Below, piece by piece: positions 8,602-62,691 of a stretch of 64,000 nucleotides of DNA. The notes below the pieces were generated by a model. That model saw only the letters and a program-made list of their open reading frames with translations, searched no databases and had not been told where the DNA came from. The position numbers and the translations under genes are program-made. Position 1 is the stretch's first letter; every line of letters starts with the position of its first letter. The stretch is from an uncultured Chitinophagales bacterium (GTDB lineage Bacteria > Bacteroidota > Ignavibacteria > UBA10030 > UBA6906): contig CAZIHJ010000001.1 of assembly GCA_964538485.1 (NCBI GenBank), forward strand, positions 13,899-77,898. Direction: 5' to 3'.

Positions 8602-9088
8602 CGATGATATTGAGCCGCGGTTGATAAACATCGGGCTGTGGGAAAAAATCAGTAAGAACGGCGGCGAAATGGGCGAACATTGGCGGTACTGATTAGATTT
8701 CGATTCGCCCGTGTTACGAAACAGCAACGTGCGTGCCGTTATTTGATTGAAGATTTGAGAATCCGAAATCCCGATTGCTTCCCCTCAGTTCTGTCGGAGA
8801 ATGAGCCTTTTGTGTTGCGGACGCGAAGGCGAAGTGCTTTACATGATGAGGACAGAATACCTGCCTGTTGAGACTGAGAAATACGGCTTCACAAATGAGA
8901 ATTGCGAGGAAGGAGGAGATTCTCAGATTGCGAACCGGCTTCAGGACAATTCTGTCTTGTATTCGTTTCTCAGAAACCATAGATTCACAAGAGAAGTCCA
9001 CCTTCAATCGAAGGACCAGGTTCTGGAAAATCACCAAGCACGGGGACTGTTGCAACGAAATCAACAACATACAACCACACTGGCACCA

Positions 9089-10513: not shown

Positions 10514-10525
10514 ACTACTGGAGCC

Positions 10526-33271: not shown

Positions 33272-33793
33272 ATGAACGGAACACACACACTTTCACGTGA
33301 ACTGCAGGAAATTGATCTCATCGTGACCAAATGCAAAGGAAGGCAGGGGGAATTGCTGACCATTCTTGAGCAGACACAGCTTCTCAATGAACAGAAGTAC
33401 CTTTCAGAGGAGGCTCTGAACCGTGTTGCTCTCAGGACAGGAGTGCCTCTTTCCCGGATCTATAATGTCGTTACGTTCTATTCATTCTTCAGTCTCAAAC
33501 CTCAGGGCAAGCACACACTCACTGTGTGTCGTGGAACCGCATGTCACACTAAGGGGTCGCGGGCCCTTCTGAACGATCTTGGACTGATTCTCGGCTGCAA
33601 CAAGGCGTTGTCGGACGGAGAATCAACCTTCACGACACCGGATAACCAGTTTACCATTTCCACAGTGGCATGTTTCGGTCAATGCGCTCTTGCTCCGGTC
33701 GTTGGCATTGATGGGATCATTCATAGCAACATGACGACGGCGAAGGTACAAAGGTTGGTGCAAAGGATCACCAAGCGGAGGATCAAGACATGA
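33272..33793 (+). CDS. NuoE/HoxE/HydC-like thioredoxin-fold [2Fe-2S] subunit
   Basis: CRGTACHTKG ... VACFGQCALAPV is the NuoE-type C-x4-C...C-x3-C [2Fe-2S] motif. Confidence 0.8.
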   Translation: MNGTHTLSRELQEIDLIVTKCKGRQGELLTILEQTQLLNEQKYLSEEALNRVALRTGVPLSRIYNVVTFYSFFSLKPQGKHTLTVCRGTACHTKGSRALLNDLGLILGCNKALSDGESTFTTPDNQFTISTVACFGQCALAPVVGIDGIIHSNMTTAKVQRLVQRITKRRIKT

Positions 33794-36951: not shown

Positions 36952-36960
36952 AGGACACAA

Positions 36961-38790: not shown

Positions 38791-39033
38791 TCCGTTGGCA
38801 CAACAATACCGTTTCTCCCGGCCCAAAATGGTCGGTTCTCTGATTTGGTAAGCACCCCCCGTTCCTTTTCAGGAATGAGAAATCAGGTCTTTAAATCCTT
38901 AATTATTACTGAATACATGCCAGAATCAGGCATTTCATACATGGAACAGCATTTGCCCTGTTACTCTCATGTAACCAATTGTTCAAACAAAGAACTCAAG
39001 TTATTATGAACTTTTACTGCGAGTCATCGAATC

Positions 39034-42000: not shown

Positions 42001-42633
42001 GGACTTGACCATGTGCTCGCCTCGGGAAAGAACGTGAACATTCTCGTGCTCGACACGGAAGTGTACTCCAACACCGGCGGCCAGATGTCCAAGTCCACGC
42101 CACGTGGCGCGGTAGCGAAGTTTGCAGCGGGCGGCAAGCCGCGCGCGAAGAAGGACCTCGGCCAGATCGCAATGACCTACGGTAATGTCTACGTTGCAAC
42201 GGTGGCCATGGGTGCGAACGACATGCAAACCATCAAAGCATTCCTTGAAGCGGAAGCATACGATGGCCCGTCACTTATCATCGCATACAGTCATTGCATT
42301 GCACACGGCATTAACATGGAAAAGGGGATGGGCAACCAGAAAGCCGCGGTGGAAAGTGGCCATTGGCCGCTGTACCGCTACAACCCGACGCAGGACGCCA
42401 ATGGGAAGAACCCGTTCAAACTCGACTCCAAGGCCGCGAAGATCAAGTTCTCTGACTACGCCTATCTTGAGACGCGTTACAAAATGCTGACAAAGAGCGA
42501 TCCTGAAGCGGCGAAAAAACTGATGGAACTTGCACAGGAAGATGTCAACAAGCGATGGGAAATCCTTGAAGAGATGGCAAGGGATGGGAATGGAACCGCG
42601 CAAACGATTGTTCCACCGGTGCAGCATAACTAG
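39034..42633 (+). CDS. nifJ: Pyruvate:ferredoxin (flavodoxin) oxidoreductase, single-polypeptide NifJ/PFOR type
   Basis: 1199 aa; N-terminus VTIDGNEAAAYVAHKLNEVIAIYPITPSS; internal ferredoxin motifs CIQCNKCAIVCPHA and CTGCGICIEICP; a TPP-binding C-terminal domain (GGDGWAYDIGFGG). Confidence 0.95.
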   Translation: MEQIPKRKHVTIDGNEAAAYVAHKLNEVIAIYPITPSSNMGEWADEWSAQGRKNLWGTVPSVTEMQSEGGAAGAVHGALQTGALSTTFTASQGLLLMIPNMYKIAGELTSTVFHVSARSLATQSLSIFGDHSDVMATRGTGFAMMCSNSVQEVMDFALIAQAATLEARVPFLHFFDGFRTSHEVMKIEQLNDDDIRAMIDDELIHAHRSRGLSPDRPVMRGTAMNPDVYFQARETVNPFYAACPAIVQKAMDKFAKVVGRQYQLFEYFGSPNAERVIVIMGSGTGAVEETISHLNSKGENVGVLKVRLFRPFSIAAFVQALPKSVKTIAVLDRTKEPGGAGEPLYQDVVTAIAERHSSGTLPFVFPRIIGGRYGLSSKEFTPAMVKGVYDEMKKTPPKNHFTVGINDDVTHTSLEYDADFTTEPDDVVRAMFYGLGADGTVGANKNSIKIIGEDTDFFAQGYFVYDSKKSGSTTISHLRFGPRPIKSNYLIERANFIACHQWFFLEKFDVLKNAVPGATFLLNSYFGPDKVWDELPRQIQEQIIRKKIKFYVIDGYKVAQATGMGGRVNTIMQTCFFAISGVLPREQAIDAIKNSIKKTYGKKGDQIVQQNFDAVDQTIANLFEVTIPELVTSTLEMPSAVSSKAPEFVRNVTGVIIAGMGDSLPVSAMPIDGTFPVGTAQWEKRNIALEIPVWDTQVCIQCNKCAIVCPHATIRIKVYDPKELAGAPSTFKSTDYRGPEYKGMKYSIQVAPEDCTGCGICIEICPAKNKSETRLKAINMMPQPAIRDQERENYEFFLNLPEVDRRGVKMDSVKGSQLLQPLFEYSGACSGCGETPYLKLVTQLFGDRMLVANATGCSSIYGGNLPTTPWTKNNDGRGPAWSNSLFEDNAEFGMGMRLTIDKHTEMAKELVQVLEPVIGAELVNALLTASQADEAGIYEQRLRVEELKKKLKMITSPEAKQLATLADSLVKKSVWIVGGDGWAYDIGFGGLDHVLASGKNVNILVLDTEVYSNTGGQMSKSTPRGAVAKFAAGGKPRAKKDLGQIAMTYGNVYVATVAMGANDMQTIKAFLEAEAYDGPSLIIAYSHCIAHGINMEKGMGNQKAAVESGHWPLYRYNPTQDANGKNPFKLDSKAAKIKFSDYAYLETRYKMLTKSDPEAAKKLMELAQEDVNKRWEILEEMARDGNGTAQTIVPPVQHN

Positions 42634-47939: not shown

Positions 47940-47968
47940 GTGTGCGACCATAATTGAAAGCACGTCCT

Positions 47969-48409
47969 ATGAGTATCATTTTCAGTCGTAGATGTGAATA
48001 TGGCTTGCAGGCGGTACTGTATCTTGCATTGAAGAACGGGGGAACGAAGACTTCCGTTAAGGAACTCGTCCAGCACATTCAAGTGCCTTCGCCGTTCCTT
48101 GCAAAGATCCTTCAGGACCTTGCGCACAAGGGGATACTCATGTCCTCCAAAGGACCGCGCGGAGGGTTTGCGCTCGCCAAACCGGCCAACGAGATCACGA
48201 TGCTGAGTATTGTGGAGGCAATTGACGGTACAGCGTTTACCAATGGGTGTGTGCTCGGGTTCATGGAGTGTACCACGGGAACACCATGCGCCATGCATGA
48301 TGAATGGTCTGGAATTCGTGACCGGATTATTGGCGCGCTTGGCAATCAAGATCTCGGAGAGATGGCAAAGCGAATGCACAAACCTGAGTACGAAGGAGCG
48401 TTGAGCTAG
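47969..48409 (+). CDS. Rrf2-family transcriptional regulator (IscR/NsrR-like, 3-Cys Fe-S ligands)
   Basis: Winged helix SVKELVQHIQVPSPFLAKILQDLAHKGIL, and the Cys triad C-x6-C-x6-C (CVLGFMECTTGTPC). Confidence 0.8.
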   Translation: MSIIFSRRCEYGLQAVLYLALKNGGTKTSVKELVQHIQVPSPFLAKILQDLAHKGILMSSKGPRGGFALAKPANEITMLSIVEAIDGTAFTNGCVLGFMECTTGTPCAMHDEWSGIRDRIIGALGNQDLGEMAKRMHKPEYEGALS

Positions 48410-48558
48410 GGGCCGTGTTCTTATATCGGTCTTTGTCCGAAATTGGCACGGGAATTGGCCTTTAAGGACATAAAGGGCGATGAGAATGACGAACGTGCTG
48501 AAGGGAAACCAGAAGGGCAATTCTCAGTCGGCCGGTTATCAGACTTGAAAGTCCGATT

Positions 48559-49776
48559 ATGAGAATTGAAAAACTGGAACCCGGCGGAGATATCCCTCCG
48601 GACGAATTTGCGCCCGAAGTTTCGTTGCATAGAATAACCAAAGTGGAGAAGTCCCGGACAAGGAAGAAAATCCCACCCGGTTCCCGACGCCTCCTTCCGG
48701 ATTTTTCCTCCGAACCTCACCGCGCAAAAAGATTTATATGGAGACTCAGGGAGGATCCGCAGTTCCTCAGATCAACAGTTCAGTTTACGTTTGCGCTCCT
48801 GTGTGTTTGGATTGGGATTGAGTTTTACCTGTTCATGCAGTGGGGGCTGTCAAGTGGAGATGCCCCGTTTTCCAGCCGCCCTCCCGGAGTCGAGGGGTTT
48901 CTTCCAATCAGTGCACTCATCAGTCTCAAGTATTGGATGCTGACGGGCATCATCAATAACATTCATCCCGCATCGCTGTTCATCCTGATTGCGATTGTCG
49001 CGGTTAGCATTGTGTTGAAGAAGTCGTTCTGCAGTTGGTTGTGCCCGGTGGGAACGATAAGCGAATCTCTCTGGATGCTTGGACAGCGGCTCTTTAAGCG
49101 CAATGTGAATGTTACGCGCTGGCTTGATTACCCCCTCCGATCCCTCAAATATATTCTTCTTTTCTTTTTTGTGTATGCAATCTGGCAAATGGATGTCTCA
49201 TCGTTGGCGACGTTTATTTACAGTCCTTACAACAAAGTTGCGGACATCAAGATGTACTTGTTCTTTGCCGAGATCACCTCGTTTGCCCTGTGGGTGATTC
49301 TCGGGCTTGTTCTTCTCTCCGTAGTGATCAAGAATTTCTGGTGCCGTTTTCTCTGTCCCTACGGCGCCCTACTCGGGATTGTCGGGTGGATGAGTCCGTT
49401 GAAGGTCACACGTAAGGAATCCTCTTGCATTGACTGCGAGCTTTGCACGAAAGCATGTCCTGCAAATATCAAGGTGCATGCTGTTGCACGGGTGTGGAGC
49501 GATGAGTGCACAAGTTGTTTGCAGTGTGTCTCCGCGTGTCCCGTGAAGGATACACTCAATATGCAACTGAGCGCATCCCGCAGACCCGTCCCGCATTGGA
49601 TGTTGGGAATTCTCGTTGCAGGAGTATTTGTGGCGATCACAGGGTTTGCGATGCTCACAGGTCATTGGCAAAACGCAATCAAGCAGGAAGAGTATCAGCG
49701 TCGATTCCAGCAACTTGATTCACCAAAGTATCAACACTTTCAAGGCAAGGTGCCGGAGTATGGGTCAGAGGATTGA
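48559..49776 (+). CDS. NapH/MauN-like integral-membrane polyferredoxin (4Fe-4S binding)
   Basis: Several TM helices, CSWLCPVGT, and ferredoxin motifs CIDCELCTKACP and CTSCLQCVSACP. The start is uncertain. Confidence 0.6.
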   Translation: MRIEKLEPGGDIPPDEFAPEVSLHRITKVEKSRTRKKIPPGSRRLLPDFSSEPHRAKRFIWRLREDPQFLRSTVQFTFALLCVWIGIEFYLFMQWGLSSGDAPFSSRPPGVEGFLPISALISLKYWMLTGIINNIHPASLFILIAIVAVSIVLKKSFCSWLCPVGTISESLWMLGQRLFKRNVNVTRWLDYPLRSLKYILLFFFVYAIWQMDVSSLATFIYSPYNKVADIKMYLFFAEITSFALWVILGLVLLSVVIKNFWCRFLCPYGALLGIVGWMSPLKVTRKESSCIDCELCTKACPANIKVHAVARVWSDECTSCLQCVSACPVKDTLNMQLSASRRPVPHWMLGILVAGVFVAITGFAMLTGHWQNAIKQEEYQRRFQQLDSPKYQHFQGKVPEYGSED

Positions 49777-50550: not shown

Positions 50551-51120
50551 TTACGAAAAGGGATTTCTATTGTGCTTTGCTTGTTCCAGGAGACTGGAGC
50601 AATAGGCACAAAAGCTATGACTTTTCATATCGAGTTCTTCCACATACGACGCTGCATGCATGACGCATGAATGCTGTGAGCAGTGCACGAGGCCCAGCGA
50701 GTGTCCGAGCTCATGAGTTGCTACTTTTTGCAAACGTTCCCGGACAAGGAGTGTATTTGACGGAAGTCCGTACAGCTCATTGCGGAATCGGTGATATGAT
50801 ACAACGGCAACATTCCCGCCCAGCGGGGCCTCGCCGAACACATATGTGAGTATGGGTATATACAAGTCATACCCTGTCACTCCGACGAGTTGCACCCCAT
50901 TGTCTGCGTGCCGCGGTTTTGCGCTGTTGAGTTGAGCCAGGAAATGCAGAATAGCGGTAGAATTGTATTGCCCCCGCTGCACGTCGTAGAAACGATCAAT
51001 GGCAAAGCGGTCCGGACAAATTCTTACCGGGACGCCGAACGTTTCGTGCAACGTCGAGTCCAAACCATCAAATACACCGGGGTCAACCTCTGCCAGCGGT
51101 TGTACCTCAATTGCCGTCAT
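50551..51120 (-). CDS. Archaemetzincin-family zinc metallopeptidase
   Basis: HELGHSLGLVHC (HExxHxxGxxH) followed by Cys-rich CSQHSCVMH...CAYC, characteristic of AmzA. Confidence 0.75.
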   Translation of the reverse strand: MTAIEVQPLAEVDPGVFDGLDSTLHETFGVPVRICPDRFAIDRFYDVQRGQYNSTAILHFLAQLNSAKPRHADNGVQLVGVTGYDLYIPILTYVFGEAPLGGNVAVVSYHRFRNELYGLPSNTLLVRERLQKVATHELGHSLGLVHCSQHSCVMHAASYVEELDMKSHSFCAYCSSLLEQAKHNRNPFS

Positions 51121-52459
51121 TGCGCTTTAAACCGTACTTCTGAATCTTGTGATAGAGCGTTACCCGGTCAATGTCAAGAATTGTGGCTGCGCGGCTTACA
51201 TTCCATCCTGTTTCGGCGAGAACCTCTTTGATATACTTGTGCTCCACATCTTCAAGTGTCTTCCTGCCATTGATTCCGACTACAGATGTTCTCAATGGAA
51301 GATGGTCCTTTTCAATTGTCGATCCGACACTCACCACAACAGCACGCTCGATTGCATTCTCCAACTCACGCACATTTCCCGGCCATTCATACCCCTTTAG
51401 TTCGAGCATGGCTTCACGCGAAAACCCCTCGATCCTCTTGTTCATGGCACGCGAATATTTATCAAGGAAATGATGGGCGAGTTTTGCAATATCTCCCTTC
51501 CGGCTACGGAGGGGAGGGATATGAATTGGAAAGACATTCACACGGTAAAAGAGATCTTCCCGGAACGTCCCGTCCTTAACCGCTTGCTCAAGGTCTTTGT
51601 TCGTTGCACAAATCACCCTGAAATCCGACGTGAGCACATCGCTTCCACCGACTCGTGTGAACTGCTTTGTCTCAATGACGCGGAGCAAGTCCATTTGCGT
51701 CTTTGGGTCAATGTTGCCGATTTCATCAAGGAACAATGTCCCTCCGTCGGCCATCTCGACTTTTCCCTTCCTCCGGTACTGCGCACCTGTAAATGCCCCC
51801 TTTTCGTGGCCGAAGAGTTCACTCTCCAGCAATGTCTCAGTCATCGCGCCACAGTTTACCGTGACGAGAGAAAAGAACTTTCGTTGACTGGCATTGTGAA
51901 TGGCCCGTGCTACCAGCTCCTTGCCTGTGCCGCTCTCACCGCGAATCATGACCGTGGTGTCCGCGACGGCAACGGTCTTCACAAGTTTCAAAACGTTGAG
52001 AATTTCAGGCGATTCTCCCACAATCTCATCCCCGCTGGTGAGTTCGCTGACTGCATCTTTCAACCTCTGATTTTCCTTCAGCAGTTCCTGTTCCTTGAGG
52101 ATCTTCTCCACCAGATGATCAAGGTAATCGGGGTCAATGGGTTTGGTGATGTAGTCGTACGCACCATCCTTGAGGGATTTCACGGCGGTATCCACCGCAG
52201 CAAACGCCGTGATAATGATAACGGCGATATGTTTGTTGGTCTCCTTTACACGATGCAACAGCTCGATCCCATCCATACCAGGCATCCGGATGTCGACAAA
52301 CATGATATTCCAACGATTCAATTGCAGTTTTCTTAGTGCGGCTGCGGCATTCTCCGCCACGTCAACACGGTACCCCTCTTCGGCAAACCACTTTGATAGT
52401 GATTCCCTCACAATCAACTCATCGTCCACGACGAGAATCCCGATCTCATTGTTGTTCAT
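51107..52459 (-). CDS. Sigma-54-dependent response regulator (NtrC family)
   Basis: REC (ILVVDDE...DIRMPGMDG), GESGTGKE, GAFTGA, and a Fis-type HTH at the C-terminus. Confidence 0.9.
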   Translation of the reverse strand: MNNNEIGILVVDDELIVRESLSKWFAEEGYRVDVAENAAAALRKLQLNRWNIMFVDIRMPGMDGIELLHRVKETNKHIAVIIITAFAAVDTAVKSLKDGAYDYITKPIDPDYLDHLVEKILKEQELLKENQRLKDAVSELTSGDEIVGESPEILNVLKLVKTVAVADTTVMIRGESGTGKELVARAIHNASQRKFFSLVTVNCGAMTETLLESELFGHEKGAFTGAQYRRKGKVEMADGGTLFLDEIGNIDPKTQMDLLRVIETKQFTRVGGSDVLTSDFRVICATNKDLEQAVKDGTFREDLFYRVNVFPIHIPPLRSRKGDIAKLAHHFLDKYSRAMNKRIEGFSREAMLELKGYEWPGNVRELENAIERAVVVSVGSTIEKDHLPLRTSVVGINGRKTLEDVEHKYIKEVLAETGWNVSRAATILDIDRVTLYHKIQKYGLKRNDGN

Positions 52460-54110
52460 AATCCATTTCCTTTCTTATTCCGGAAGTGTCCGGTTGCGAT
52501 GCATCCACTTCTTGCTTTACCGGAAACGTCAAGGTGAATGTAGTTCCTGCTCCCGGCCTGGAGTCCACGAGGATGGTCCCGTGGTGGTGCTGAACGATCC
52601 CATACACGACCGCCAGACCCAGACCAACACCCTTGCCTTCAGATTTTGTTGTGAAGAATGGCTCAAAAACGTGCGCCTTCACATCGTTGCTCATTCCGCA
52701 TCCTGTATCACTTACGCGAAGGATGACCTTTTCGGGTTGCTGCTGTTGCACCTCGATCTTCAGCGTTCCACCTGAAGCTCCGGGGGAGTCCATTGCTTCG
52801 ATTGCATTCGACATCAAGGCGATAAGCGCCTGTTGCAGTTGATTGGAATCTCCATCCATTACGACATCGTCTGCACGCGACACGATCACATCGATTCCAT
52901 GCATCCGGGCGTGGTGGCTCATGAGCATAACGCATCGATCCACAACCGTGTTCAAGGAAAGAGCGCCAAATGATCCGCCCCGATGTCGCGCAAAGACGAG
53001 CAGGTTCTTCACGATATTGCCACAACGGAGCGATTCATCTGCGATGAGTTTCAGTTCATCATGCATTTGCAGAAGTTCTTTTTCCGTGAGGGTGTTTCGT
53101 TTCACCCTCTTCATCAACAGTCTTGCAAATGTCAGAATGCCTTCAAGCGGGTTATTAAGTTCATGGGCAACAGTCGCCGCAAGGTTTCCTAACGATGCCA
53201 TTTTCTCCACTGTCACCATATGCCTGTGCGCCCGCTCCAGGTCCGCAGTTTTCTCTTCAACCTTCTGCTCGAGAGTTCGGGACCATTCTGTGAGTTCTTC
53301 CCGCGCCGCGGCGAGGTCATCCGTCATCCGGTTGAACGTTACAGCGAGCGTCCCGAGCTCATCACGCGATGTTGCTTCGAGTTTCTGATCCAGTTGGCCG
53401 GACGATACCAACTGCATTCCAGTCATCAATCGTTTAACAGGCCGGTTGATGACCATCCAAATGAAGCCCCCCGAAATCAAGGAGATCAACAGCACGGCGG
53501 CAAACGAAAGGAGGAGGAGCTGGTTTCTGCTTTGTTGCAGATGGACGTCCACCTGTGCAAGTGACATTTTTACGTCCAGCACCCCGAGGATGGTTTTCGA
53601 TTCCGGGTGTGCATGACACGCGGCGTCTGAACATTGCTGTTCATTCCTGATCGGAGTGATGAGTCCGAGAACGCGATCACCGTTCGGTTTGCTGAACACA
53701 CGGGTGAGCTGAGCAGGTGTTTGGGAGACGCTATCGAGATGCGAAGACGAATGACAGCTCACACACGCCTCGGCGTTCACGTCAACCTGGGTGTGCGTTT
53801 CATCCGGAATGGATCCGAAGATCACTTCACCCTGTTTGTTGTAAATGCGGATTCCCTCGAGTCCCGGCTCACCCCCGACCGAAGTGATGATGCTGCGAAC
53901 ATCATCTTTTTGATTGAGCAACATGCTGTGGCGCGTGGAGCGGGCGATGAGATCGCTGACGCGCGTCGCACTCATGATCACATTTTCCATAATGTGAGAC
54001 TGCTGGATGTGGACCGCGGCGAAGGTCAACGCAAACAGTATGATCGTCTGTACAGAGACGATCAACAAAAAGAGTCTGAACGCGATTGTCCTTGTGAGTT
54101 TCATAACCAT
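52446..54110 (-). CDS. Sensor histidine kinase with periplasmic sensor domain containing CXXCH motif(s), HAMP, HisKA, HATPase
   Basis: TM1 (residues ~8-33), a ~155-aa periplasmic domain containing ACVSCHSS (CXXCH) and CSDAACHAH, TM2, HAMP, an H-box HELNNPLEGI, and G-boxes DTGCGM and GVGLGL. Confidence 0.85.
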   Translation of the reverse strand: MVMKLTRTIAFRLFLLIVSVQTIILFALTFAAVHIQQSHIMENVIMSATRVSDLIARSTRHSMLLNQKDDVRSIITSVGGEPGLEGIRIYNKQGEVIFGSIPDETHTQVDVNAEACVSCHSSSHLDSVSQTPAQLTRVFSKPNGDRVLGLITPIRNEQQCSDAACHAHPESKTILGVLDVKMSLAQVDVHLQQSRNQLLLLSFAAVLLISLISGGFIWMVINRPVKRLMTGMQLVSSGQLDQKLEATSRDELGTLAVTFNRMTDDLAAAREELTEWSRTLEQKVEEKTADLERAHRHMVTVEKMASLGNLAATVAHELNNPLEGILTFARLLMKRVKRNTLTEKELLQMHDELKLIADESLRCGNIVKNLLVFARHRGGSFGALSLNTVVDRCVMLMSHHARMHGIDVIVSRADDVVMDGDSNQLQQALIALMSNAIEAMDSPGASGGTLKIEVQQQQPEKVILRVSDTGCGMSNDVKAHVFEPFFTTKSEGKGVGLGLAVVYGIVQHHHGTILVDSRPGAGTTFTLTFPVKQEVDASQPDTSGIRKEMDYEQQ

Positions 54111-54281
54111 CCCTGAAAGACAAGACGGAACCTACCGTGTTGAATTTATTCACAATTCATGCCAGCAGGGCTTCACGGTGATTCCGTCCATTTGGGAACG
54201 AATATTCCTTTTCAGACCGAACAGTCTTTTGTCAACTCTGGTGACCGCCTCTTGCTTTTGTAGCAGGAATGACAAACACCG

Positions 54282-55502
54282 TCATCCCCGTGAATCTGCG
54301 GGGACAAAACCCGCTCCGGCACCCGGGAGCTCCACTGCCTCTGAAACGTGGTCAGCACCCGCCACATGGCCGTGTTCGACCTCTTTCCCGAACACATCGA
54401 AGTACCGGGCAACAAATGAGAACGCAACGAATCCAAACGCGGCGAGAGCTATGGTGATGGCAAGTTCCTGCCATGAAGGAATATATGTCCGCGTTTGCCA
54501 CTGCTCCATGCTGGTGATGGCGGTATTCAATCTGTGGGCGACGAACCCAAGCAACACAAGAACGGAGGAATAGAACAGCCCGGTTTTACTCGTCCGGACT
54601 TTCTTGAACAGGAGCAGAGCGAAAGGAACCAGCACTCCCAATACGACTTCGCCAATGAACATCATGCTCTGGTACGTTGGTTCAAACACGTATTGTAATG
54701 CATCCCGATTCACCAGATCCTGAATTCGTACAGTGAAGTACAGAGCAAGCACGACTACCACGACTTTCGCCAACTGGGAGAGCAATGGCAGTTCTATTTC
54801 TCTCCCGAAGGCTCGCGCTGAAAGGAAGGATTCGAAGATCGTCATGCACAACCCTGCCGCAACGCACGAGATGATGAAGAGAAACGGAATGACGTTGGAA
54901 TACCAGAGCGGGTGCATTCTGCCTGGGATGATAAGGAACAGTGACCCGAGGGAAGACTGGTGGAGAGTAGAAAGAAGCACACCCGCAACGACCAATGGAA
55001 TAGTGATTGCCTTGACGACCTTCAACGCTCGCTTGAGCCGGAAACGCTCAAGAATCACGGGGCTAAACTCCAACGCGAGCACCGTGGTGTACAGCATCAC
55101 GCACCAGGCAACTTCGAACATCACCGATCTTGGGTTCCAATAAATGAGTGCGTGCCAGATGGCCCACGGACGCCCGAGATCAACCATCAGGCCTGCAATG
55201 ACAAGCAGATATCCGAGAAACGCTGTAAGAATGGTTGGTCGGAGAATTGGTCTGAACCGCTCAATGTTGAAGATATACACTGCCGCCGCGATCGTGAATC
55301 CGCCTGCTGCGAGTCCGACCCCAACCAGAATATCGAACCCGATCCATAATCCCCACGGAAATGTATCTGCGAGATTAGTTGTGGCCCCGAGGCCGAGAGT
55401 GAAGCGCTGGATCGTCGCCACAAGTCCGGCCACCATCAACGCCACGGCAACTACTTTCCAAAAAGTTATCTTAAGAAGTCCAGGAAATTTCATGATCATC
55501 AC
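54282..55502 (-). CDS. NrfD/PsrC-family polytopic membrane quinol-interacting subunit
   Basis: Roughly 10 TM helices with the NrfD-like pattern (GLWIGFDILVGVGLAAGG...). Start codon overlaps the stop of the upstream NrfC-like gene. Confidence 0.8.
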   Translation of the reverse strand: MMIMKFPGLLKITFWKVVAVALMVAGLVATIQRFTLGLGATTNLADTFPWGLWIGFDILVGVGLAAGGFTIAAAVYIFNIERFRPILRPTILTAFLGYLLVIAGLMVDLGRPWAIWHALIYWNPRSVMFEVAWCVMLYTTVLALEFSPVILERFRLKRALKVVKAITIPLVVAGVLLSTLHQSSLGSLFLIIPGRMHPLWYSNVIPFLFIISCVAAGLCMTIFESFLSARAFGREIELPLLSQLAKVVVVVLALYFTVRIQDLVNRDALQYVFEPTYQSMMFIGEVVLGVLVPFALLLFKKVRTSKTGLFYSSVLVLLGFVAHRLNTAITSMEQWQTRTYIPSWQELAITIALAAFGFVAFSFVARYFDVFGKEVEHGHVAGADHVSEAVELPGAGAGFVPADSRG

Positions 55503-56281
55503 CTTGTGTTAGTATTTGCTTGATCGTCTTTTTTGCGCAACTCCTCGGCTTCGAACCTCGCTACTTCTGTTCGACGTGCGGTGATCCAATGAATGCCGAA
55601 GAGTACCACGCTCGCTGCAACCGTGTACTTCGGAATTTGTGAGAGCACGCGCCACGAGAGATTGGGAATCGGCTCATTTGGAATGTTCATCGGGAAACCG
55701 AGCTTCTCAAACGGTATGGCAGAGATGTACAGGACGGAAGTTCCCCCGGCCTCTTTCAGTCCATAGATGTAGTTCACATACTGTCCGGGATTCTCGTCGA
55801 TGCGTTTTCTTGCTTCCGTGATCATCTCATCCCGATCACCGAAGGTTGTCGCTCCGAACTGGCACGCTTCAGCGCATGCTGTTGGCTGACCTGCAGTCAC
55901 GCGCTCATAGCACATCTTGCACTTCTGGACTCTTGGCGCAAGACTGCTCCATTCATAGCGTGGGATCTCAAATGGACATGCCTGCATACAGTACCGGCAT
56001 CCGATGCACTTCGACTCATCGTAGACAACGGCACCGGTTTCTGTCTTAGTGAACGCTCCCACGAGACAGGCAGAAACACACGTCGGCTCGTTACAGTGCA
56101 TACACAGTTTGCGCACATGGACTTCGTCATTCTGGAAGCTTTTCAACACGGTGTATCGGGTTGAGGAGAGCTCCTGCCCATCCTCCTGGGGAAGACCGTT
56201 TGTTTCTGCGCAGGCACGTGTGCATTCGCCACACCCCACACACTTGGTGATATCGATAAGCAACGCTTTTGACGTACTCAT
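55499..56281 (-). CDS. NrfC/PsrB/HybA-like 4x[4Fe-4S] ferredoxin subunit with C-terminal TM anchor
   Basis: CVGCGECTRAC, CMHCNEPTCVSAC, CIGCRYCMQACP and CKMC...C clusters, plus a C-terminal hydrophobic helix. Confidence 0.85.
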   Translation of the reverse strand: MSTSKALLIDITKCVGCGECTRACAETNGLPQEDGQELSSTRYTVLKSFQNDEVHVRKLCMHCNEPTCVSACLVGAFTKTETGAVVYDESKCIGCRYCMQACPFEIPRYEWSSLAPRVQKCKMCYERVTAGQPTACAEACQFGATTFGDRDEMITEARKRIDENPGQYVNYIYGLKEAGGTSVLYISAIPFEKLGFPMNIPNEPIPNLSWRVLSQIPKYTVAASVVLFGIHWITARRTEVARFEAEELRKKDDQANTNTR

Positions 56282-56991
56282 TGGCCGATCTCCTTGTGAT
56301 CAGACTCTTGTGCTTTGCGTAAGGTCGTGAACGTGTGACCGAAATCCTCCCAGATGCGATCGTCAAGCTGCTGGAGAACGCCGTCGACCGGCAACCCGCC
56401 CTCCTGTAAGGTCACCGGCTGTCCCTCCATCTCATTCATCGCAATAAAGTCCCGCACCAATACCACTTGTTCCCGCAACCATTCCATCGGTTGGCGGATA
56501 ATGTATTGTCGTGATGCTGCAATATCATCTACCCTTGATTTCAAACGGACAAGCCATCCCTTTCCATACGGATCAGTCATTATGAGCGAAGGGTCTCTCA
56601 GAACATCAGGGTTCGGCTCGACAACTCCACCGGCAACAGGTGTTGCCAGCCGGAATGATCGGCCGTTCGCACCCATTGAAAAATCAGCAAAAGAGGGTCT
56701 CGTCGTCTCTCCAGCGGGTGGGACGGCGATTGTTTCAACTACTCCCATCAGCCGGCTGAGAAACCCGTCAATCCCCAGCGTAATTGTCCCATCGTGGTTG
56801 GTCCGCATCCACATATGGTTGGTAGCGAGTTCGACATCCTGCGGGAGGTGACTCGGGAGTTGGAAAGGCCGTGGCCGCGATGTCGCCTGGAATGGCTTTC
56901 GCACCGCGACAGGCCGGCTACGTTTTTTTTGAACAACGTGGTCGATTGCCAGGAAAGTAATCAGTGTGCACAGCACGAGTAAGACAGTCAT
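56278..56991 (-). CDS. Membrane-anchored glycine-cleavage H-protein-like (GcvH-fold) protein lacking the lipoyl-lysine
   Basis: N-terminal TM helix, then NHMWMRTNHDGTITLGIDGFLSRLMGVVETIAVP...PYGKGWLVRLK. This parallels GcvH (KEHEWL...GITEHAQ...VFVDLP...ESVKA...SEPYAGGWIFKIK) but no Lys sits at the lipoylation position. GGAGG RBS. Confidence 0.6.
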   Translation of the reverse strand: MTVLLVLCTLITFLAIDHVVQKKRSRPVAVRKPFQATSRPRPFQLPSHLPQDVELATNHMWMRTNHDGTITLGIDGFLSRLMGVVETIAVPPAGETTRPSFADFSMGANGRSFRLATPVAGGVVEPNPDVLRDPSLIMTDPYGKGWLVRLKSRVDDIAASRQYIIRQPMEWLREQVVLVRDFIAMNEMEGQPVTLQEGGLPVDGVLQQLDDRIWEDFGHTFTTLRKAQESDHKEIGQ

Positions 56992-57003: not shown

Positions 57004-57657
57004 CTATGATTTCAATTTCTTTTCCGTGACTAACGAACCGTCACGCACATCGACATGGAAAAACTGGCGAGCGATGCTCGACCACTCTTCGTCCGAGCAC
57101 TTGTCAGCGAGATTCTGCAACAGAACACCACCCTCCTGGAACATCAATGCGGGTGTTCTCGAAAAGAACCTGAGAAGTTCAGCGCGTTCCATATCCTGCC
57201 ATTTGATAGCCGCCCTTCCAGTGAAGAGATTGTTCAATTGGAAGTTGAGTTTGGTTGGCCGCACTTTGAGCAGCCATCCATCACCATAGGGGGAGCTATT
57301 GACAAGTGCAGGGTTGTTCTTCACCATTTCATTTTTTTCGATTACCCAACCGGTCACCGGACTTCTCATGGGCACCACTCGATTACCATGCCGTACGACC
57401 CATCCAACCTCCCCCTGGCGTACGCGACGAAGCAACCGTGGGAGCCTCAACTCATCAACGGCCCCGATGACTGATTGCCCGAAATCATCGATCCCGATAA
57501 CAACATCTCCATCCCGGGTCTGTCTCATCCATGTATGACCCGGATGCATGTAGCGTTTCACCATCACAGGTTCAGGATGGGCTTCAGGTTTTTCTTTTGC
57601 CATCATTCGGATGAGAATGATGACCGTCGCAGTGATTATTGCAAGTATAAGCGACAT
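57004..57657 (-). CDS. Membrane-anchored GcvH-like protein, paralog of the downstream gene, lacking lipoyl-lysine
   Basis: Trimmed to the ATG at 57657, which has an AGGAGG RBS. TM helix, then YMHPGHTWMRQTRDGDVVIGIDDFGQSVIGAVDELRLP...RHGNRVVPMRSPVTGWVIEKN...NSSPYGDGWLLKVRP, which aligns with GcvH position by position. The lipoyl-Lys is replaced by RHGNR. Confidence 0.6.
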   Translation of the reverse strand: MSLILAIITATVIILIRMMAKEKPEAHPEPVMVKRYMHPGHTWMRQTRDGDVVIGIDDFGQSVIGAVDELRLPRLLRRVRQGEVGWVVRHGNRVVPMRSPVTGWVIEKNEMVKNNPALVNSSPYGDGWLLKVRPTKLNFQLNNLFTGRAAIKWQDMERAELLRFFSRTPALMFQEGGVLLQNLADKCSDEEWSSIARQFFHVDVRDGSLVTEKKLKS

Positions 57658-58038
57658 GGCAACCTCCTTTGGGTTTCTGTTCACCTCTGTCGAAGAGTAA
57701 TAGTCCCAAGAAGTTTGCCAGATCACTCACGGGTTTTCAGCGGTGTAAACTCGTGCGACACAATAGGTTGAAACCTGTTGCAAAAACGAACATGTGATGA
57801 GATGAAACAAGAAGTTGAATAACACAACAGCGCCTTCGGCTGAGAGTCGGGATTTTAGCTGGATCTGGTTGTTATCAATGGAGTTGGAAGTGTGTTGAAA
57901 ATTGAAGCGAGAATGTGTAAGTAATCATCACTTCCAGACTGGAGAGTCGCTGATGCGGGAACAAAGTCAAGCCACGCTCATGTTGCCCCACCGGACGGAC
58001 TTTACACCTCCGAAAGTAACTGTTGAGGTTTTCAATAC

Positions 58039-58052
58039 TGGCATCCAATTCG
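58039..58052 (+). promoter_or_regulatory. Possible sigma-54 -24/-12 element (TGGCATccaatTCGC) upstream of the cytochrome operon
   Basis: GG-N10-GC spacing; TGGCA matches the -24 box; -12 reads TCGC instead of TTGC. Lies ~140 nt upstream of the ATG at 58192. Weak. Confidence 0.25.
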
Positions 58053-58191
58053 CCCCTTATTTCTCACAACTGAGAACCTCCACCCATGATTGAGATGCAA
58101 TTTCAGCGTTTTCATTGCTTTCTACCTCGGCATGTGCTTTGAATCTATGAAGGGTGTTGATTTGACAATACAACGGTTGATCTATCAGGTG

Positions 58192-60330
58192 ATGAAAACC
58201 TTTACACTCATACTGACACTTGTCTTCTCTTCGAATGTTGGACCGGATCTTCTGGCCCAGGACAACAATCAGTGTTTGACCTGTCATGGCGAGCATGCCC
58301 TTTCTATGGAGAAGAGGGGAAAGTCAATTTCCCTTTTTGTGAATCCGCCCGCATTCCAGAAGTCAGCACACGGTGATCTCGAATGCGTTGGATGTCACGA
58401 AGGACTTTCTGGCGACGAGATTCCGCATGCAAAGAAGATCAATGCGGTTGACTGCATGAGCTGCCACGACAGCCAGGGGCTTACCCACTACAAGGAGAGC
58501 GTCCACGCACTGAAGAAGGCGAATGGATCTACTGCGGCTACCTGTGCGGACTGTCATTCAAAGCACGCGATTCAGAGAATCTCTGAAAAGGATCCACATG
58601 CAAGGCAAGAATTTGGTATTGGGGTCTGCGCGACGTGTCACGGTGATCTGAAAAACAAGTTCATGGCTTCGGACCATGGTAAGGCCTTCAAGGCCGGCAC
58701 AAAAGGGGCTCCGGCTTGCATAGACTGTCATGGCGAACACGGGGTCCAGTCCGCGATGAATGACTCTTCGACCACAAACCACAAGCAAGTTGCGGCAATG
58801 TGCTTGAATTGTCATCTGGACAATCCCGACGTACGCGCGAAAGTCGGGCCGTCTGCCGGGTTTGTGTCGAGCTACGAGCAAAGCGTTCATGGCCAGGCTG
58901 TGCAACATGGGAATGATATGGCTGCAACGTGTACTGACTGCCACAGCAGTCATGAGATGCGAAAGGGTTCCGATCCCGTATCAAAGGTTGCAAAGAAAAA
59001 TATCGCATCCACATGCGGACAGTGTCACGGCGATGTTGAAGAGCAGTACAAGTACAGTGTCCACGGCAAAGCGGTTGCTGCCGGTATTGGGGCTTCAGCG
59101 ACGTGCACAGATTGCCATGGCGAGCACAACATTCTTTCTCCAAAAGACGACCGTTCACCCGTCTCTGCCAGGAACGTCTCTGTGCAGGTTTGCTCTCCCT
59201 GTCACGCATCGGTCAAACTCAACGAGAAGTACGGGCTCGCCAGTGACCGGTTCCAGAGCTTTGCCGATAGCTATCATGGGCTGGCAGGACGGGCGGGCGA
59301 TGTTGAGGTTGCCAATTGTGCCAGTTGCCATGGTGTTCACGACATCAAGCCTTCTTCGGATTCCACTTCAAGGATCCATCCAAAGAATCTTGTCAACACG
59401 TGTGGTTCATGTCATCCCGGGGCGAACGAGAATTTTGCCCAGGGTTCTGTGCACGTGATTGCGACGTCCGGCCAGGACAGGGTGCTGTATTTCGTTTCCA
59501 CCTCATACATTATCCTGATTATTGTGACGATTGGAGGGATGTTCTTCCACAATCTTCTCGACTTCATCAGGAAATCAAAAAGAAAACTCATGGAACGGCG
59601 CGGGTTGATCCATCACCGACCTGCGGAAAACCGGCTGTACCTGAGGATGTCATTAGGCGAGAGGATTCAGCACGGTACATTGCTCGTCAGTTTTACAACG
59701 CTTGTTCTTACAGGGTTTGCACTCAGGTTTCCGGATGCCTGGTGGGTAGCACCTGTGCGCGATATCAGTCCGATGATGTTTGAACTCCGAAGCCTCAGTC
59801 ACAGGATTGCCGGTGTTGTAATGGTACTCGTGAGTCTCTATCATGTCTACTATGTTCTTATTGTCCCGCGAGGCAAGCAACTCCTGCGCGATATGCTTCC
59901 CGAACGGAACGATCTTACGGATGTGATTGGCGTTTTGAAATACAATCTTGGGATGGCTGCCGTGAAACCGGGGTTCAAGCGCTTCAGCTACATTGAGAAA
60001 GCGGAGTATTGGGCGCTCATCTGGGGGACGTTCGTGATGGCCGCAACCGGATTTATCCTCTGGTTTGACAACACGTTTATAGGCCTCTTCACCAAGCTTG
60101 GATGGGACGTTGCACGGACCATTCATTACTACGAGGCCTGGCTAGCAACACTCGCAATCATCGTCTGGCATTTCTACTTCGTGATTTTCAACCCGGACAC
60201 GTATCCCCTCAACCTCGCTTTCTGGAAGGGAACGCTCACTGAGGAAGAAATGCGGGAAGAACATCCCCTGGAGTTGGATGAATTGAAGCGAGAGGAAGAA
60301 TCGGAAAAAGAAATAGGCGGGGAGAGTTAG
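58192..60330 (+). CDS. Multiheme cytochrome c (13 CXXCH) fused to C-terminal di-heme cytochrome b (FdnI/PhsC/HybB-like) membrane domain
   Basis: Trimmed to the ATG at 58192 (signal peptide MKTFTLILTLVFSSNVGPDLLAQ). Thirteen CXXCH motifs occur between residues 30 and 440. The C-terminal ~270 aa forms 4-5 TM helices with conserved His pairs (IQHGTLL...; SHRIAGVVMVLVSLYHVYYV; WHFYFVIFNP), typical of b-type cytochrome subunits of formate dehydrogenase or hydrogenase. Confidence 0.8.
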   Translation: MKTFTLILTLVFSSNVGPDLLAQDNNQCLTCHGEHALSMEKRGKSISLFVNPPAFQKSAHGDLECVGCHEGLSGDEIPHAKKINAVDCMSCHDSQGLTHYKESVHALKKANGSTAATCADCHSKHAIQRISEKDPHARQEFGIGVCATCHGDLKNKFMASDHGKAFKAGTKGAPACIDCHGEHGVQSAMNDSSTTNHKQVAAMCLNCHLDNPDVRAKVGPSAGFVSSYEQSVHGQAVQHGNDMAATCTDCHSSHEMRKGSDPVSKVAKKNIASTCGQCHGDVEEQYKYSVHGKAVAAGIGASATCTDCHGEHNILSPKDDRSPVSARNVSVQVCSPCHASVKLNEKYGLASDRFQSFADSYHGLAGRAGDVEVANCASCHGVHDIKPSSDSTSRIHPKNLVNTCGSCHPGANENFAQGSVHVIATSGQDRVLYFVSTSYIILIIVTIGGMFFHNLLDFIRKSKRKLMERRGLIHHRPAENRLYLRMSLGERIQHGTLLVSFTTLVLTGFALRFPDAWWVAPVRDISPMMFELRSLSHRIAGVVMVLVSLYHVYYVLIVPRGKQLLRDMLPERNDLTDVIGVLKYNLGMAAVKPGFKRFSYIEKAEYWALIWGTFVMAATGFILWFDNTFIGLFTKLGWDVARTIHYYEAWLATLAIIVWHFYFVIFNPDTYPLNLAFWKGTLTEEEMREEHPLELDELKREEESEKEIGGES

Positions 60331-60573
60331 AAGTGAAGGTCAACGGAAAAAAGGTAGTCCCTTTTTCATCCTTTTGGACTATTTCCAGGAACTTGGAAAG
60401 TCCCTATTGTCTTGTCATAGATGGTAGTATGGCAAATCAGTGAATGACCATTTCAATATGATACTTGTGGAGCGGGCAGTTCTTTGTTACATTAGCTGCG
60501 GTTGCTATGAGTTCCACCCGTTCTTTTCTTCGAATGCTCCAACACTAACACCAACATTTGCATAGGGAGAAAA

Positions 60574-61116
60574 ATGAGATCAACCATGCAGTTTATTGCA
60601 GTCATACTTGTTACTCTCGTCGTGGTAAGCGTAAGTGCTGCGGACAATAAGTTCACGGGCGCCAAGATGTGCGCCGCGTGCCACAAGGCAGGTAAAGGCG
60701 GAACTGCTTTTGCCGTTTGGGAGAAGAGCGCCCACGCACACGCATTTCAAACATTGCTCAGTGATGCCTCAAAGAAAATTGCAAAAGAAAAGGGTTTAAA
60801 GACGGCACCCAGTGAAAGTCCGGAGTGTTTGAAGTGTCATGTCACCGGCGGCGGTGCTGCGAAGAATATTGAGGCCTCGTTCAAGAAGGAAGAAGGCATC
60901 ACATGCGAAGCATGCCACGGGGCGGCATCCGGCTACAAGATGCTTCACAGCAAGGGTGATCTTGCAAAGTCAAAAGCGGCAGGAATGGATCCCGGGCAGA
61001 AAGATGCGAAATTCTGCGTTACCTGTCACAACGCTGAGAGTCCCTCACACAAATCAGCTTTCAAACTCGACGAGATGTGGTCGAAGATAGAACACCCACT
61101 GCCGGCAAAGAAATGA
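60574..61116 (+). CDS. Periplasmic tetraheme cytochrome c (c3-like)
   Basis: Signal peptide, then CAACH, CLKCH, CEACH and CVTCH in 180 aa. Confidence 0.8.
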   Translation: MRSTMQFIAVILVTLVVVSVSAADNKFTGAKMCAACHKAGKGGTAFAVWEKSAHAHAFQTLLSDASKKIAKEKGLKTAPSESPECLKCHVTGGGAAKNIEASFKKEEGITCEACHGAASGYKMLHSKGDLAKSKAAGMDPGQKDAKFCVTCHNAESPSHKSAFKLDEMWSKIEHPLPAKK

Positions 61117-61128
61117 CTTGATGCGTGA

Positions 61129-61158
61129 AACCCGGCCGGTTGACGTCACCCGGCCGGG
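61129..61158 (+). terminator. GC-rich perfect hairpin (CCCGGCCGG-N10-CCGGCCGGG) followed by ATTTGTTTC; probable attenuator/terminator
   Basis: 9-bp perfect stem read from the sequence, 13 nt after the cytochrome stop, with a T-rich tail. The next gene starts 16 nt later. Confidence 0.45.
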
Positions 61159-61173
61159 ATTTGTTTCATCGGT

Positions 61174-62691
61174 GTGTTTACCACGGAGTCCCACTTGAAG
61201 CGCCGATTTCCGGATGTCATCTACAATCCCATCAGCATAGTAGGCGCAGCACTCGCAAGCGTCAGCTTTGCAACCATTCTCTTTCTAACGCTGGTCGATA
61301 TTATGCAGGAGCACCCCCCCGCATACATCGGCATTATCTCCTATGTTGTCCTTCCCATACCGTTGATCATCGGTCTGGCGCTCATCCCGATTGGCATTCT
61401 GCGCGAGAAATCCCGTTTACGCAAGGGATTGCCCGCCAGCCGGATGTCATTTAGTATTGATCTGAACATTCCAAGGCAACGGACTGCGGTGACGCTCTTC
61501 GCAGGTGCAACCGTTATTTTCCTGTTATTCACGGCGTACGGAAGTTACAGGACATTTGAATGGACGGAATCAGTCGAGTTCTGCGGTGAAACTTGTCACT
61601 CAGTGATGGAACCGGAATTCACTGCATACTTGAATTCTCCTCATGCGCGGGTAAAGTGTGTGGATTGTCATGTCGGATCCGGAGCGGATTGGTACCTCAA
61701 GTCGAAGCTCAGTGGTGCGTACCAGGTGTATGCTGTTCTGGTGGATAATTATCCCCGTCCGATCCCGACGCCGATAGCGAACTTGCGTCCGGCGCAGGAA
61801 ACATGTGAACAGTGTCACTGGCCGTCTCACTTTGCAGGTGAGAAGAAGTATGTCAACACGTACTTCAAGTCCGACGAACAGAATACGCGTTGGACGATTG
61901 CCCTTTTGATGAAGACCGGTGGAGGAAGTGCCGATCGTACTCCGACGAGCGGTATTCACTGGCATATGAATATCGCCAATGAGATTACCTACGTCGCGAC
62001 GGACAGTCAGCGTCAGACGATTCCATGGGTGAAGGTTAGAAATCAATCAACGGGTGAGGAGACCGAATATCTCTCGTCGGATGCAACGGAGTCGATGGAC
62101 CATTTCAGGCAACTCCCATCCAACAGAGTAGACTGTATTGATTGTCACAACAGGCCGTCGCACATCTATCGTCCACCTGTCCGCATTGTGGATCAGAGCC
62201 TTGCACTCGGCAGAATCAGCACGGATCTTCCCAGTATTCGGGCAGCGTCCATTCAGGCGTTGACGGAACCCTACACGTCAACGAAAGCAGCGATGGACAG
62301 TATCCCGTTGTTGATGGCCGGATTTTACGCGGATCAGTATCCCGCTGTTGCGAATGAGAAGAAGGAGTTGATCAAGGCTGCTTCGGAAGAGCTTAAAACA
62401 CAATTCAGCCGGAACTTTTTCCCCGGGATGAAGGTCAACTGGAAGGCATATCCCAACAACATCGGACATATGACAGACATCGGCTGTTTTCGATGCCACG
62501 ATGGGAAGCACGTCAGCGCCACGGGCAAGACGATCTCAAAGGATTGCAATAGCTGTCATACGATTCTCTATCAGGGCAGCGATCCTGTTCCGACAACTAT
62601 GAGTATTGCTGGATTGGAATTCCAACACCCTGAAGACATTGGTGAGATCTGGAAGGAAATGAACTGCAAGGATTGTCACACCGGGCAGTGA
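61174..62691 (+). CDS. Membrane-anchored multiheme cytochrome c (7 CXXCH; NapC/NrfH-superfamily-like N-terminus with 2-3 TM helices)
   Basis: The open frame begins after a TGA at 61141; the first plausible start is GTG at 61174. Hydrophobic helices (ISIVGAALASVSFATILFLTLV; IGIISYVVLPIPLIIGLALIPIGIL; VTLFAGATVIFLLF) precede CGETCH, CVDCH, CEQCH, CIDCH, CFRCH, CNSCH and CKDCH. Confidence 0.75.
   Translation: MFTTESHLKRRFPDVIYNPISIVGAALASVSFATILFLTLVDIMQEHPPAYIGIISYVVLPIPLIIGLALIPIGILREKSRLRKGLPASRMSFSIDLNIPRQRTAVTLFAGATVIFLLFTAYGSYRTFEWTESVEFCGETCHSVMEPEFTAYLNSPHARVKCVDCHVGSGADWYLKSKLSGAYQVYAVLVDNYPRPIPTPIANLRPAQETCEQCHWPSHFAGEKKYVNTYFKSDEQNTRWTIALLMKTGGGSADRTPTSGIHWHMNIANEITYVATDSQRQTIPWVKVRNQSTGEETEYLSSDATESMDHFRQLPSNRVDCIDCHNRPSHIYRPPVRIVDQSLALGRISTDLPSIRAASIQALTEPYTSTKAAMDSIPLLMAGFYADQYPAVANEKKELIKAASEELKTQFSRNFFPGMKVNWKAYPNNIGHMTDIGCFRCHDGKHVSATGKTISKDCNSCHTILYQGSDPVPTTMSIAGLEFQHPEDIGEIWKEMNCKDCHTGQ

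Follow-up and report, generated by a model that had tools for sequence, protein, structure and literature searches.

We analyzed a 64,000-nucleotide stretch of DNA from an uncultured Chitinophagales bacterium (contig CAZIHJ010000001.1, positions 13,899 to 77,898; hereafter the window), focusing on a sensor histidine kinase of 554 residues and the genes that surround it (Table 1). Judging from its sequence, the kinase very probably presents to the outside of the cytoplasmic membrane a domain with two covalently bound haems, and together with its partner, a sigma-54-dependent response regulator, it most likely switches on a neighboring quinone-linked membrane complex. We consider it probable that the two proteins act as a two-haem periplasmic sensor kinase and a sigma-54 activator that jointly switch both their own operon and an adjacent operon encoding GcvH-like, iron-sulfur (FeS) and NrfD-family proteins.

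A sensor kinase with two conserved haem motifs

Pfam assigned HAMP (residues 219-266), HisKA (307-378) and HATPase_c (420-532) domains to the kinase. HisKA and HATPase domains in the kinase, joined with REC, GAFTGA-bearing AAA+ and HTH_8 domains in the regulator, make up the core of an NtrB/NtrC-class pair. The closest NCBIfam models were AtoS and ZraS, with the match confined to the kinase core. Because the H-box AHELNNPL spans residues 315-322, we assign the phospho-acceptor to His316; translation may truly begin at the second ATG, at position 54104. A pair of hydropathy-predicted transmembrane (TM) segments and the AlphaFold helices 9-64 and 185-219 together place residues ~32-198 in the periplasm. 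The AlphaFold model of the sensor, built on an alignment of 24 sequences (mean predicted local distance difference test score, pLDDT, 86), comprises a long N-terminal helix running into TM1, a five-stranded sheet and a C-terminal helix running into TM2, that is, a single Cache/PAS-like fold with two flanking TM helices.

An earlier note on this DNA had read ACVSCH and CSDAACH, between TM1 and TM2, as haem-c binding motifs of a Geobacter-type redox-sensing kinase. Both motifs are present in the predicted periplasmic domain, at residues 115-120 and 160-166, and the second has the form CX4CH rather than CXXCH. In the model, motif 1 falls within a loop of low confidence that includes a short helix (117-121), and motif 2 is placed in a short helix (158-161) ahead of the last strand. 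Conservation was assessed in an alignment of 197 related sensor regions that are 28-67% identical to the window protein (median 35%). Cys116, Cys119 and His120 were each conserved at 99%, as were Cys160 and His166, with Cys165 at 100% and His168 at 94%; Met63 (99%), Arg88 (98%) and Arg137 (99%) were similarly retained. Because these Cys and His residues are kept in 94-100% of sensors at a median identity of 35%, the motifs are not chance matches: a fortuitous CXXCH was ruled out by near-invariance across such diverged relatives, and the loss of these residues in homologs, which the earlier note had named as the finding that would speak against haem binding, did not materialize. Both motifs were found in 110 of the 114 proteins that have the LGVLD anchor, and the second motif had its CX4CH form in 109 of 112 relatives.

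With four Cys and three His conserved, the same residues might serve without haem, as a periplasmic metal site or a thiol-disulfide switch. We consider this very improbable, since both motifs keep the exact C-Xn-C-H attachment form with an invariant His, motif 2 coincides in the alignment with a haem site proven by crystallography, and a ligating Met is conserved as well.

That site was found by comparing a sensor-only profile with the Protein Data Bank, which returned just two meaningful matches, 3b42 (E 5.5e-5) and 3b47 (E 4.4e-3), the haem-c sensor domains of the Geobacter sulfurreducens chemoreceptors GSU0582 and GSU0935, now grouped as 'sCache_heme'. The family sequence NEPxCSxAxCHAHP aligned with NEQRCQSCH of the two structures, superposing CX4CH on their CQSCH haem site, and Met63 fell on the YMM/LMM segment of GSU0582/GSU0935, no more than one residue from Met60. 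In these chemoreceptors, haem is bound by Cys140, Cys143 and His144, and Met60 becomes the sixth ligand upon reduction and is displaced by carbon monoxide (CO) or nitric oxide (NO) (PMC8396549); both proteins bind haem c, and their spin state and Met ligation switch with redox state (PMC8396549, PMC3831638). The likeness extends to a periplasmic domain held between two TM helices and followed by HAMP, to the Cache/PAS-like fold, to a haem motif at the aligned position in a short helix before the last strand, and to a conserved Met in the N-terminal helix. The window protein differs in that its output is a histidine kinase whereas theirs is a chemoreceptor, in that the aligned motif is CX4CH instead of CXXCH, in an extra CXXCH ~45 residues upstream, and in its conserved His168; moreover, the sequence match is remote, the E-value of 5.5e-5 being that of a family profile.

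PF21563 (Mcp40H-20_sensor), whose model derives from the 3B42/3B47 structures, matched 16 of 17 relatives (best E 3.2e-8), and a precomputed match to it is present on many database relatives. DUF3365 (PF11845, Tll0287), the family that the earlier note had proposed to check, proved the more distant of the two, with a weak match to the window domain (E 0.043; 14.7 bits, cut-off 24.1) and matches to 5 of the 17 relatives at E ≤1. PF11845 and the window sensor share a fold class and are not one family: Tll0287/DUF3365 proteins have one strictly conserved CXXCH, whereas the window sensor has CXXCH plus CX4CH. Those haem-containing Cache domains are proposed NO sensors.

Motif 1 is the extra motif that marks a two-haem subgroup. 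Twelve G. sulfurreducens signal transducers have one or two CX2-4CH motifs (PMC8396549); two of the twelve, GSU0591 and the two-component protein GSU0599, have two motifs (PMC8396549, PMC3831638), and the same extra motif is found in Adeh_2011 and Adeh_3383 (PMC3831638). The window sensor shares this trait through C116xxC119H120. c-Haem sensor domains, two-motif ones included, have been in the literature since 2006, and the kinase itself is a further case of a known sensor type, a confirmation rather than a surprise.

The family is large. A word-based search with the sensor alone returned 30 relatives, all but two aberrant sequences having both motifs, and an exhaustive profile search over 1.84 billion cluster representatives (50% identity clusters) matched 2,194 proteins at E ≤1e-3, 1,201 at 1e-10 and 395 at 1e-30, most of them kinases of 540-560 residues. 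Two members, P0071 (769 residues) and P0085 (777 residues), are ~220 residues longer and contain two stretches each that match the sensor profile; either a duplicated sensor or additional domains may be present. When one genome per species was scanned, at least 583 species genomes had a relative, and the best 80 of these loci were used for all locus comparisons below. They belong chiefly to Bacteroidota and Ignavibacteriota, with some from Gemmatimonadota, Acidobacteriota, KSB1, Calditrichota and Desulfarculales; no Geobacter is among these best 80 genome loci.

A conserved seven-gene block with sigma-54-type promoters

The regulator gene overlaps the kinase stop by 14 nucleotides (nt) and matches Sigma54_activat at E 1e-68, bearing out the proposed pairing with a sigma-54 activator: translation of the kinase is coupled to that of a REC-AAA+(GAFTGA)-HTH_8 protein. 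The third gene of the operon overlaps the regulator stop in turn and encodes an M54 metallopeptidase with a Cys-rich tail. We are unaware of any function that a peptidase would have in a two-component operon of this kind.

This order recurs across several phyla. Of 66 testable loci, 63 have the regulator after the kinase and 61 have the regulator and then the M54 peptidase. Upstream of the kinase and on the same strand, the full set of GcvH-like, FeS and NrfD-like genes was found in 45 of the 58 loci that could be tested, and the synteny spans Bacteroidota, Ignavibacteriota, Gemmatimonadota, Acidobacteriota and KSB1. From these counts, the conserved unit comprises GcvH-like 2, GcvH-like 1, FeS, NrfD, kinase, regulator and M54 peptidase. 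This seven-gene block and its promoters appear to be previously undescribed, and they are a more interesting result than the kinase. In some of the related loci (L005, L026, L030, L034), an Rrf2 homolog comes after the M54 gene.

The membrane module encoded upstream resembles HmcB/HmcC of Desulfovibrio and HybA/HybB of Escherichia coli, its best NCBIfam matches; the NrfD-like protein scored 322 bits with HybB and 317 bits with HmcC, and the FeS subunit has a C-terminal TM helix as in HybA. It differs from Hmc and Hyb in that these scores lie under the equivalog cut-offs, that the window operon includes no hydrogenase or HmcA partner, that the FeS protein has no twin-arginine translocation (Tat) signal, and that two membrane-anchored GcvH-like proteins without the lipoyl-lysine always precede the module. 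In an alignment to E. coli GcvH, Asn and Gly replace that lysine. The FeS subunit begins right at its first cluster motif, and a positively charged tail follows its C-terminal TM helix. Our literature search for NrfD together with GcvH found no report.

The flanks of the block vary. In the closest relative (L001, sensor 76% identical), DinB-like and glutamate dehydrogenase genes lie upstream of the block in place of the cytochromes found in the window. In a Desulfarculales locus (L074, 8093-11485), two tandem family kinases precede the regulator and M54 genes, and a 994-residue multihaem cytochrome and a divergent c-b fusion cytochrome replace the FeS, NrfD and GcvH-like genes. The common theme across loci is a quinone-linked membrane redox module of varying identity.

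Examination of the flanking intergenic regions for -24/-12 promoters, as the earlier note had advised, uncovered two conserved elements, P1 ahead of the GcvH-like genes and P2 ahead of the kinase. Using the relaxed pattern TGGCAN-N5-NTGN at a fixed position, with the background rate taken from the same loci, we found a P2-type element at its fixed place in 44 of 77 loci (~1.8% expected; binomial P ~2e-55) and a P1-type element in 27 of 60 (~3% expected; binomial P ~2e-25). The canonical sequence TGGCAY-N5-TTGC occurred 29 times in 1.24 Mb of loci (both strands), 18 of these sites being at P1 or P2 positions. P1 reads TGGCAG-N5-TTGG in close relatives, at the same place amid otherwise diverged sequence, and is a perfect TGGCAC-N5-TTGC in more distant ones; P2 has the same sequence in L001 and L002 as in the window, a similar one in other close relatives and the canonical one in distant relatives. 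Scans for sigma-70-type promoters and terminators remained at background level save for one hairpin after the NrfD-like gene. As this hairpin closes the NrfD-like gene, the block falls into two transcription units, both of sigma-54 type, and P2 would make the kinase operon autoregulated.

Upstream of P1, the 7-mer TGTTGAA occurred in 18 of 27 loci, compared with 28 of 486 control stretches, and the palindrome TGTTGA-N5-TCAACA (mainly with a 5-nt spacer, ≤1 mismatch) lay within 330 nt of P1 in 12 of the 27 loci, where ~0.7 would be expected. This enrichment is suggestive of a regulator-binding site. One locus (L066) has two near-perfect copies between divergent promoters.

The earlier note had set the kinase beside a quinol-oxidoreductase and multihaem cytochrome locus and had suggested the cytochrome operon as its target, by way of a weak sigma-54-like element at 58039. 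As a description of the neighborhood this stands: the NrfD/FeS quinone-type module and the cytochromes are both neighbors of the kinase operon. The divergent operon encodes a 13-haem c / cytochrome b fusion, a 4-haem c554-like protein and an NrfH/NapC-like protein, and the fusion gene is four genes off the regulator. Several observations would fit control of these genes by the kinase and regulator: the element at 58039-58053 has correctly spaced GG and GC and stands ~140 nt ahead of the probable start codon; P1 lies in the same intergenic region, in which the best palindrome is also located; L066 has a divergent NrfH-like gene with a canonical TGGCATACCGTTTGC beside perfect palindromes; and in L074 the kinase-regulator-M54 trio stands among multihaem and c-b cytochromes. 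However, homologs of the window cytochromes lie near the kinase in only 6 of the 80 loci and are absent from L001, the conserved partner being the operon for the two GcvH-like, FeS and NrfD proteins. The element itself is at chance frequency (79 two-mismatch sites of this kind in the window, 69 expected), and the palindrome that abuts it is too close for a looping enhancer; the conserved elements are instead those at 57706-57720 and 54150-54164. A further point against comes from L019. There, a c-b cytochrome homolog (58% identity) immediately follows the genes of a PAS kinase and a sigma-54 regulator, orthologs of a second two-component system of the window (8801-11884; 49% and 63% identity, respectively); the L019 regulator is only 44% identical to the one studied here. 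The second system is at least an equal candidate should the cytochrome operon be sigma-54-dependent, and we think it improbable that the kinase and regulator mainly control the cytochromes. We therefore keep the GcvH-like/FeS/NrfD operon as the favored target.

Table 1. Positions in the window of the genes, protein features and DNA elements discussed
Feature	Position	Strand	Basis or remark
Sensor histidine kinase, 554 residues	52446..54110	(-)	Open reading frame (ORF) and Pfam HAMP, HisKA, HATPase_c
TM1, residues 13-31	54018..54074	(-)	Kyte-Doolittle maximum 2.48; within AlphaFold helix 9-64
TM2, residues 199-217	53460..53516	(-)	Kyte-Doolittle 2.45; AlphaFold helix 185-219
Periplasmic single Cache/PAS-like sensor domain, residues ~32-198 (~165 residues)	53517..54017	(-)	
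Haem motif 1, C116-V-S-C119-H120 (CXXCH; ACVSCH = 115-120)	53751..53765	(-)	99% conserved
Haem motif 2, C160-SDAA-C165-H166 (CX4CH), then A-H168	53607..53633	(-)	99-100% conserved
Met63, candidate distal axial ligand of pocket haem	53922..53924	(-)	99% conserved; aligned with YMM/LMM
Sigma-54-dependent response regulator	51107..52459	(-)	Pfam; REC Asp56, Walker A 174, GAFTGA 221-226, HTH_8
M54 (archaemetzincin-like) metallopeptidase, HELGHSLGLVH	50551..51120	(-)	PF07998, E 1e-22
NrfD-family integral membrane subunit, HybB/HmcC-like	54282..55502	(-)	Pfam NrfD; nine predicted TM segments
4Fe-4S subunit, HmcB/HybA-like	55499..56281	(-)	C-terminal TM helix
GcvH-like protein 1	56278..56991	(-)	Pfam GCV_H; N-terminal TM anchor
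GcvH-like protein 2	57004..57657	(-)	N-terminal TM anchor; ORF as listed extends to 57726
P1, -24/-12 (sigma-54-type) element TGGCAAACTTCTTGG	57706..57720	(-)	49 nt upstream of likely GcvH-like-2 ATG (57657)
P2, -24/-12 (sigma-54-type) element TGGCATGAATTGTGA	54150..54164	(-)	40 nt upstream of kinase ATG
Terminator-like hairpin, end of NrfD-like gene	54282..54307	(-)	
Candidate regulator-binding palindrome TGTTGAGGTTTTCAATA	58021..58037	(.)	One mismatch to TGTTGA-N5-TCAACA; best window copy
Weaker palindrome copy AGTTGAATAACACAACA	57813..57829	(.)	Two mismatches; ~100 nt upstream of P1
Palindrome-like copy overlapping -12 region of P2	54138..54154		Two mismatches; near-identical in L001/L002 by eye
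Sigma-54-like site of the earlier note TGGCATCCAATTCGC	58039..58053	(+)	Two mismatches; directly abuts palindrome; synteny here not conserved
Divergent cytochrome operon	58192..62691 (58090-62691 at widest)	(+)	Adjoins block; weak link to kinase

Elsewhere in the window, the second sigma-54 two-component system consists of the PAS kinase at 8801-10513 and the regulator at 10526-11884. It is divergent (region 6484-11884) from a 9-haem cytochrome with a C-terminal FlgD_ig domain, upstream of which stands a near-canonical CGGCACGCACGTTGC at 8724-8738 (-). Another element, TGGCACGGGAATTGG at 48444-48458 (+), has a TTGG-type -12 variant as in P1 and lies between the gene of an Rrf2-family regulator (47954-48409) and that of a 405-residue membrane polyferredoxin-like protein (48559-49776). 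A further region (33790-42633, +) encodes a 1,053-residue fusion of NuoF-like flavin mononucleotide/FeS domains with a pyridine nucleotide-disulfide oxidoreductase domain, an [FeFe] hydrogenase (36961-38790) and a pyruvate:ferredoxin oxidoreductase (39034-42633, +), which together indicate a fermentative or anaerobic host.

A proposed path from haem to promoter

From the computed topology and fold, the conserved motifs, the homology with sensors of proven haem content, the order of the genes and the -24/-12 elements, we infer how the haems are attached and ligated, what signal they read, in which direction the regulator acts (activation versus repression) and where it binds. Two c-type haems would be attached in the periplasmic single-Cache/PAS-like domain, one at C116xxC119H120 and one at C160x4C165H166, and the latter would occupy a pocket equivalent to the haem pocket of GSU0582/GSU0935. 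Their likely sixth ligands would be Met63, on the helix continuous with TM1, for the pocket haem and His168 for the other. The host encodes c-type cytochromes, with 13-, 4-, 7- and 9-haem proteins within the window. The redox poise of the periplasm would alter the redox or ligation state of the haems and thereby move the TM1-continuous helix; this movement, passed through TM1, TM2 and HAMP, would set the autophosphorylation of His316, and phosphotransfer would follow from His316 to Asp56 of the co-transcribed sigma-54 activator. Once activated, the regulator would bind sites of the TGTTGA-N5-TCAACA type and open sigma-54 promoters at two places, that of its own operon (kinase, regulator and M54 peptidase) and that of the upstream GcvH-like/FeS/NrfD operon.

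Redox sensing is not the sole option for the signal, because related haem-Cache sensors behave as NO sensors. The haems might instead detect a gas (NO, CO or O2) that displaces the distal Met or His and so switches the kinase. Consistent with this idea, reduced GSU0582/GSU0935 bind CO and NO with displacement of Met60 (PMC8396549), haem-Cache domains fused to signaling modules show NO-sensor properties (PMC12889525), Met63 is as well conserved as a displaceable ligand should be, and O2 or NO would be a relevant signal for an anaerobe-like host ([FeFe] hydrogenase and pyruvate:ferredoxin oxidoreductase in the window). On the other hand, electron transfer or redox sensing by bis-ligated haems would account no less well for two haems and a conserved extra His, and the output is a quinone-linked membrane module with no recognizable enzyme of NO or O2 detoxification. 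We find a gas sensor rather unlikely, though the most serious of the competing explanations.

Several points weigh against the proposed redox switch of two operons. On the sensor side, the loop that holds motif 1 was modeled at low confidence (pLDDT 57-66), and the window domain itself scored 25.8 bits with PF21563 (E 1.4e-5), where the cut-off is 27 bits. Our literature search yielded no characterized two-motif member and no experimental haem, the mentions of GSU0599 being at sequence level, and related haem-Cache sensors fused to signaling modules behave as NO sensors (PMC12889525). On the promoter side, the -12 parts are non-canonical in the window clade (L001-L019), with TTGG in P1 and GTGA or ATGA in P2 rather than TTGC; the best palindrome of the window (58021-58037) is ~300 nt from P1; and the copy over the -12 region of P2 could suit repression, here autorepression, as well as activation. 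As for the membrane module, its FeS subunit has neither a Tat nor a Sec signal.

A candidate redox sensor across phyla

The nearest regulatory parallel is in Geobacter, where induction of the quinol oxidoreductase CbcBA at falling potential requires the sigma-54 regulator BccR (GSU0598) (10.1101/2021.04.15.440034); the preprint on CbcBA mentions no kinase (10.1101/2021.04.15.440034). The window regulator is like BccR in its REC/sigma-54/HTH architecture and, on the reading proposed here, would also be like it in acting at a sigma-54 promoter to induce a membrane redox complex linked to quinones. GSU0599, by its published description and locus tag, matches the window kinase in having two CX2-4CH motifs and a haem-PAS-like sensor and in its place beside a sigma-54 regulator, its tag being next to that of bccR (GSU0598); on these grounds the two kinases may be orthologous. 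The systems differ in what they control, a b/c cytochrome pair there versus FeS/NrfD and GcvH-like proteins here, and in layout, the order in the window being kinase-regulator-M54 peptidase with an operon that is co-directional rather than divergent. We had also considered whether the two 'hypothetical proteins' at the head of cbcBA-like operons could be GcvH-like; this was rejected, as the genes that precede the c-b cytochrome in L019 are that of a universal stress protein and two small ORFs lacking any Pfam match.

To our knowledge, little is established about the means by which anaerobes sense extracytoplasmic redox potential and select one quinone-linked electron route over another, and in Geobacter the regulator BccR is known while the signal that tells it of a drop in potential is not. 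We tentatively suggest that the kinase described here may serve as sensor for a seven-gene redox module of wide distribution, in which haems would read the potential of periplasmic electron carriers and switch on a new quinone-linked complex, and that kinases of the GSU0599 type may be the missing potential sensor of the BccR/CbcBA system. The analysis also draws attention to an uncharacterized FeS/NrfD/GcvH-like complex and to a peptidase that consistently accompanies the system. A large and conserved family of two-haem kinases, together with sigma-54 promoters and a fixed membrane module, provides a testable candidate for a redox sensor in Bacteroidota, Ignavibacteriota and other phyla.

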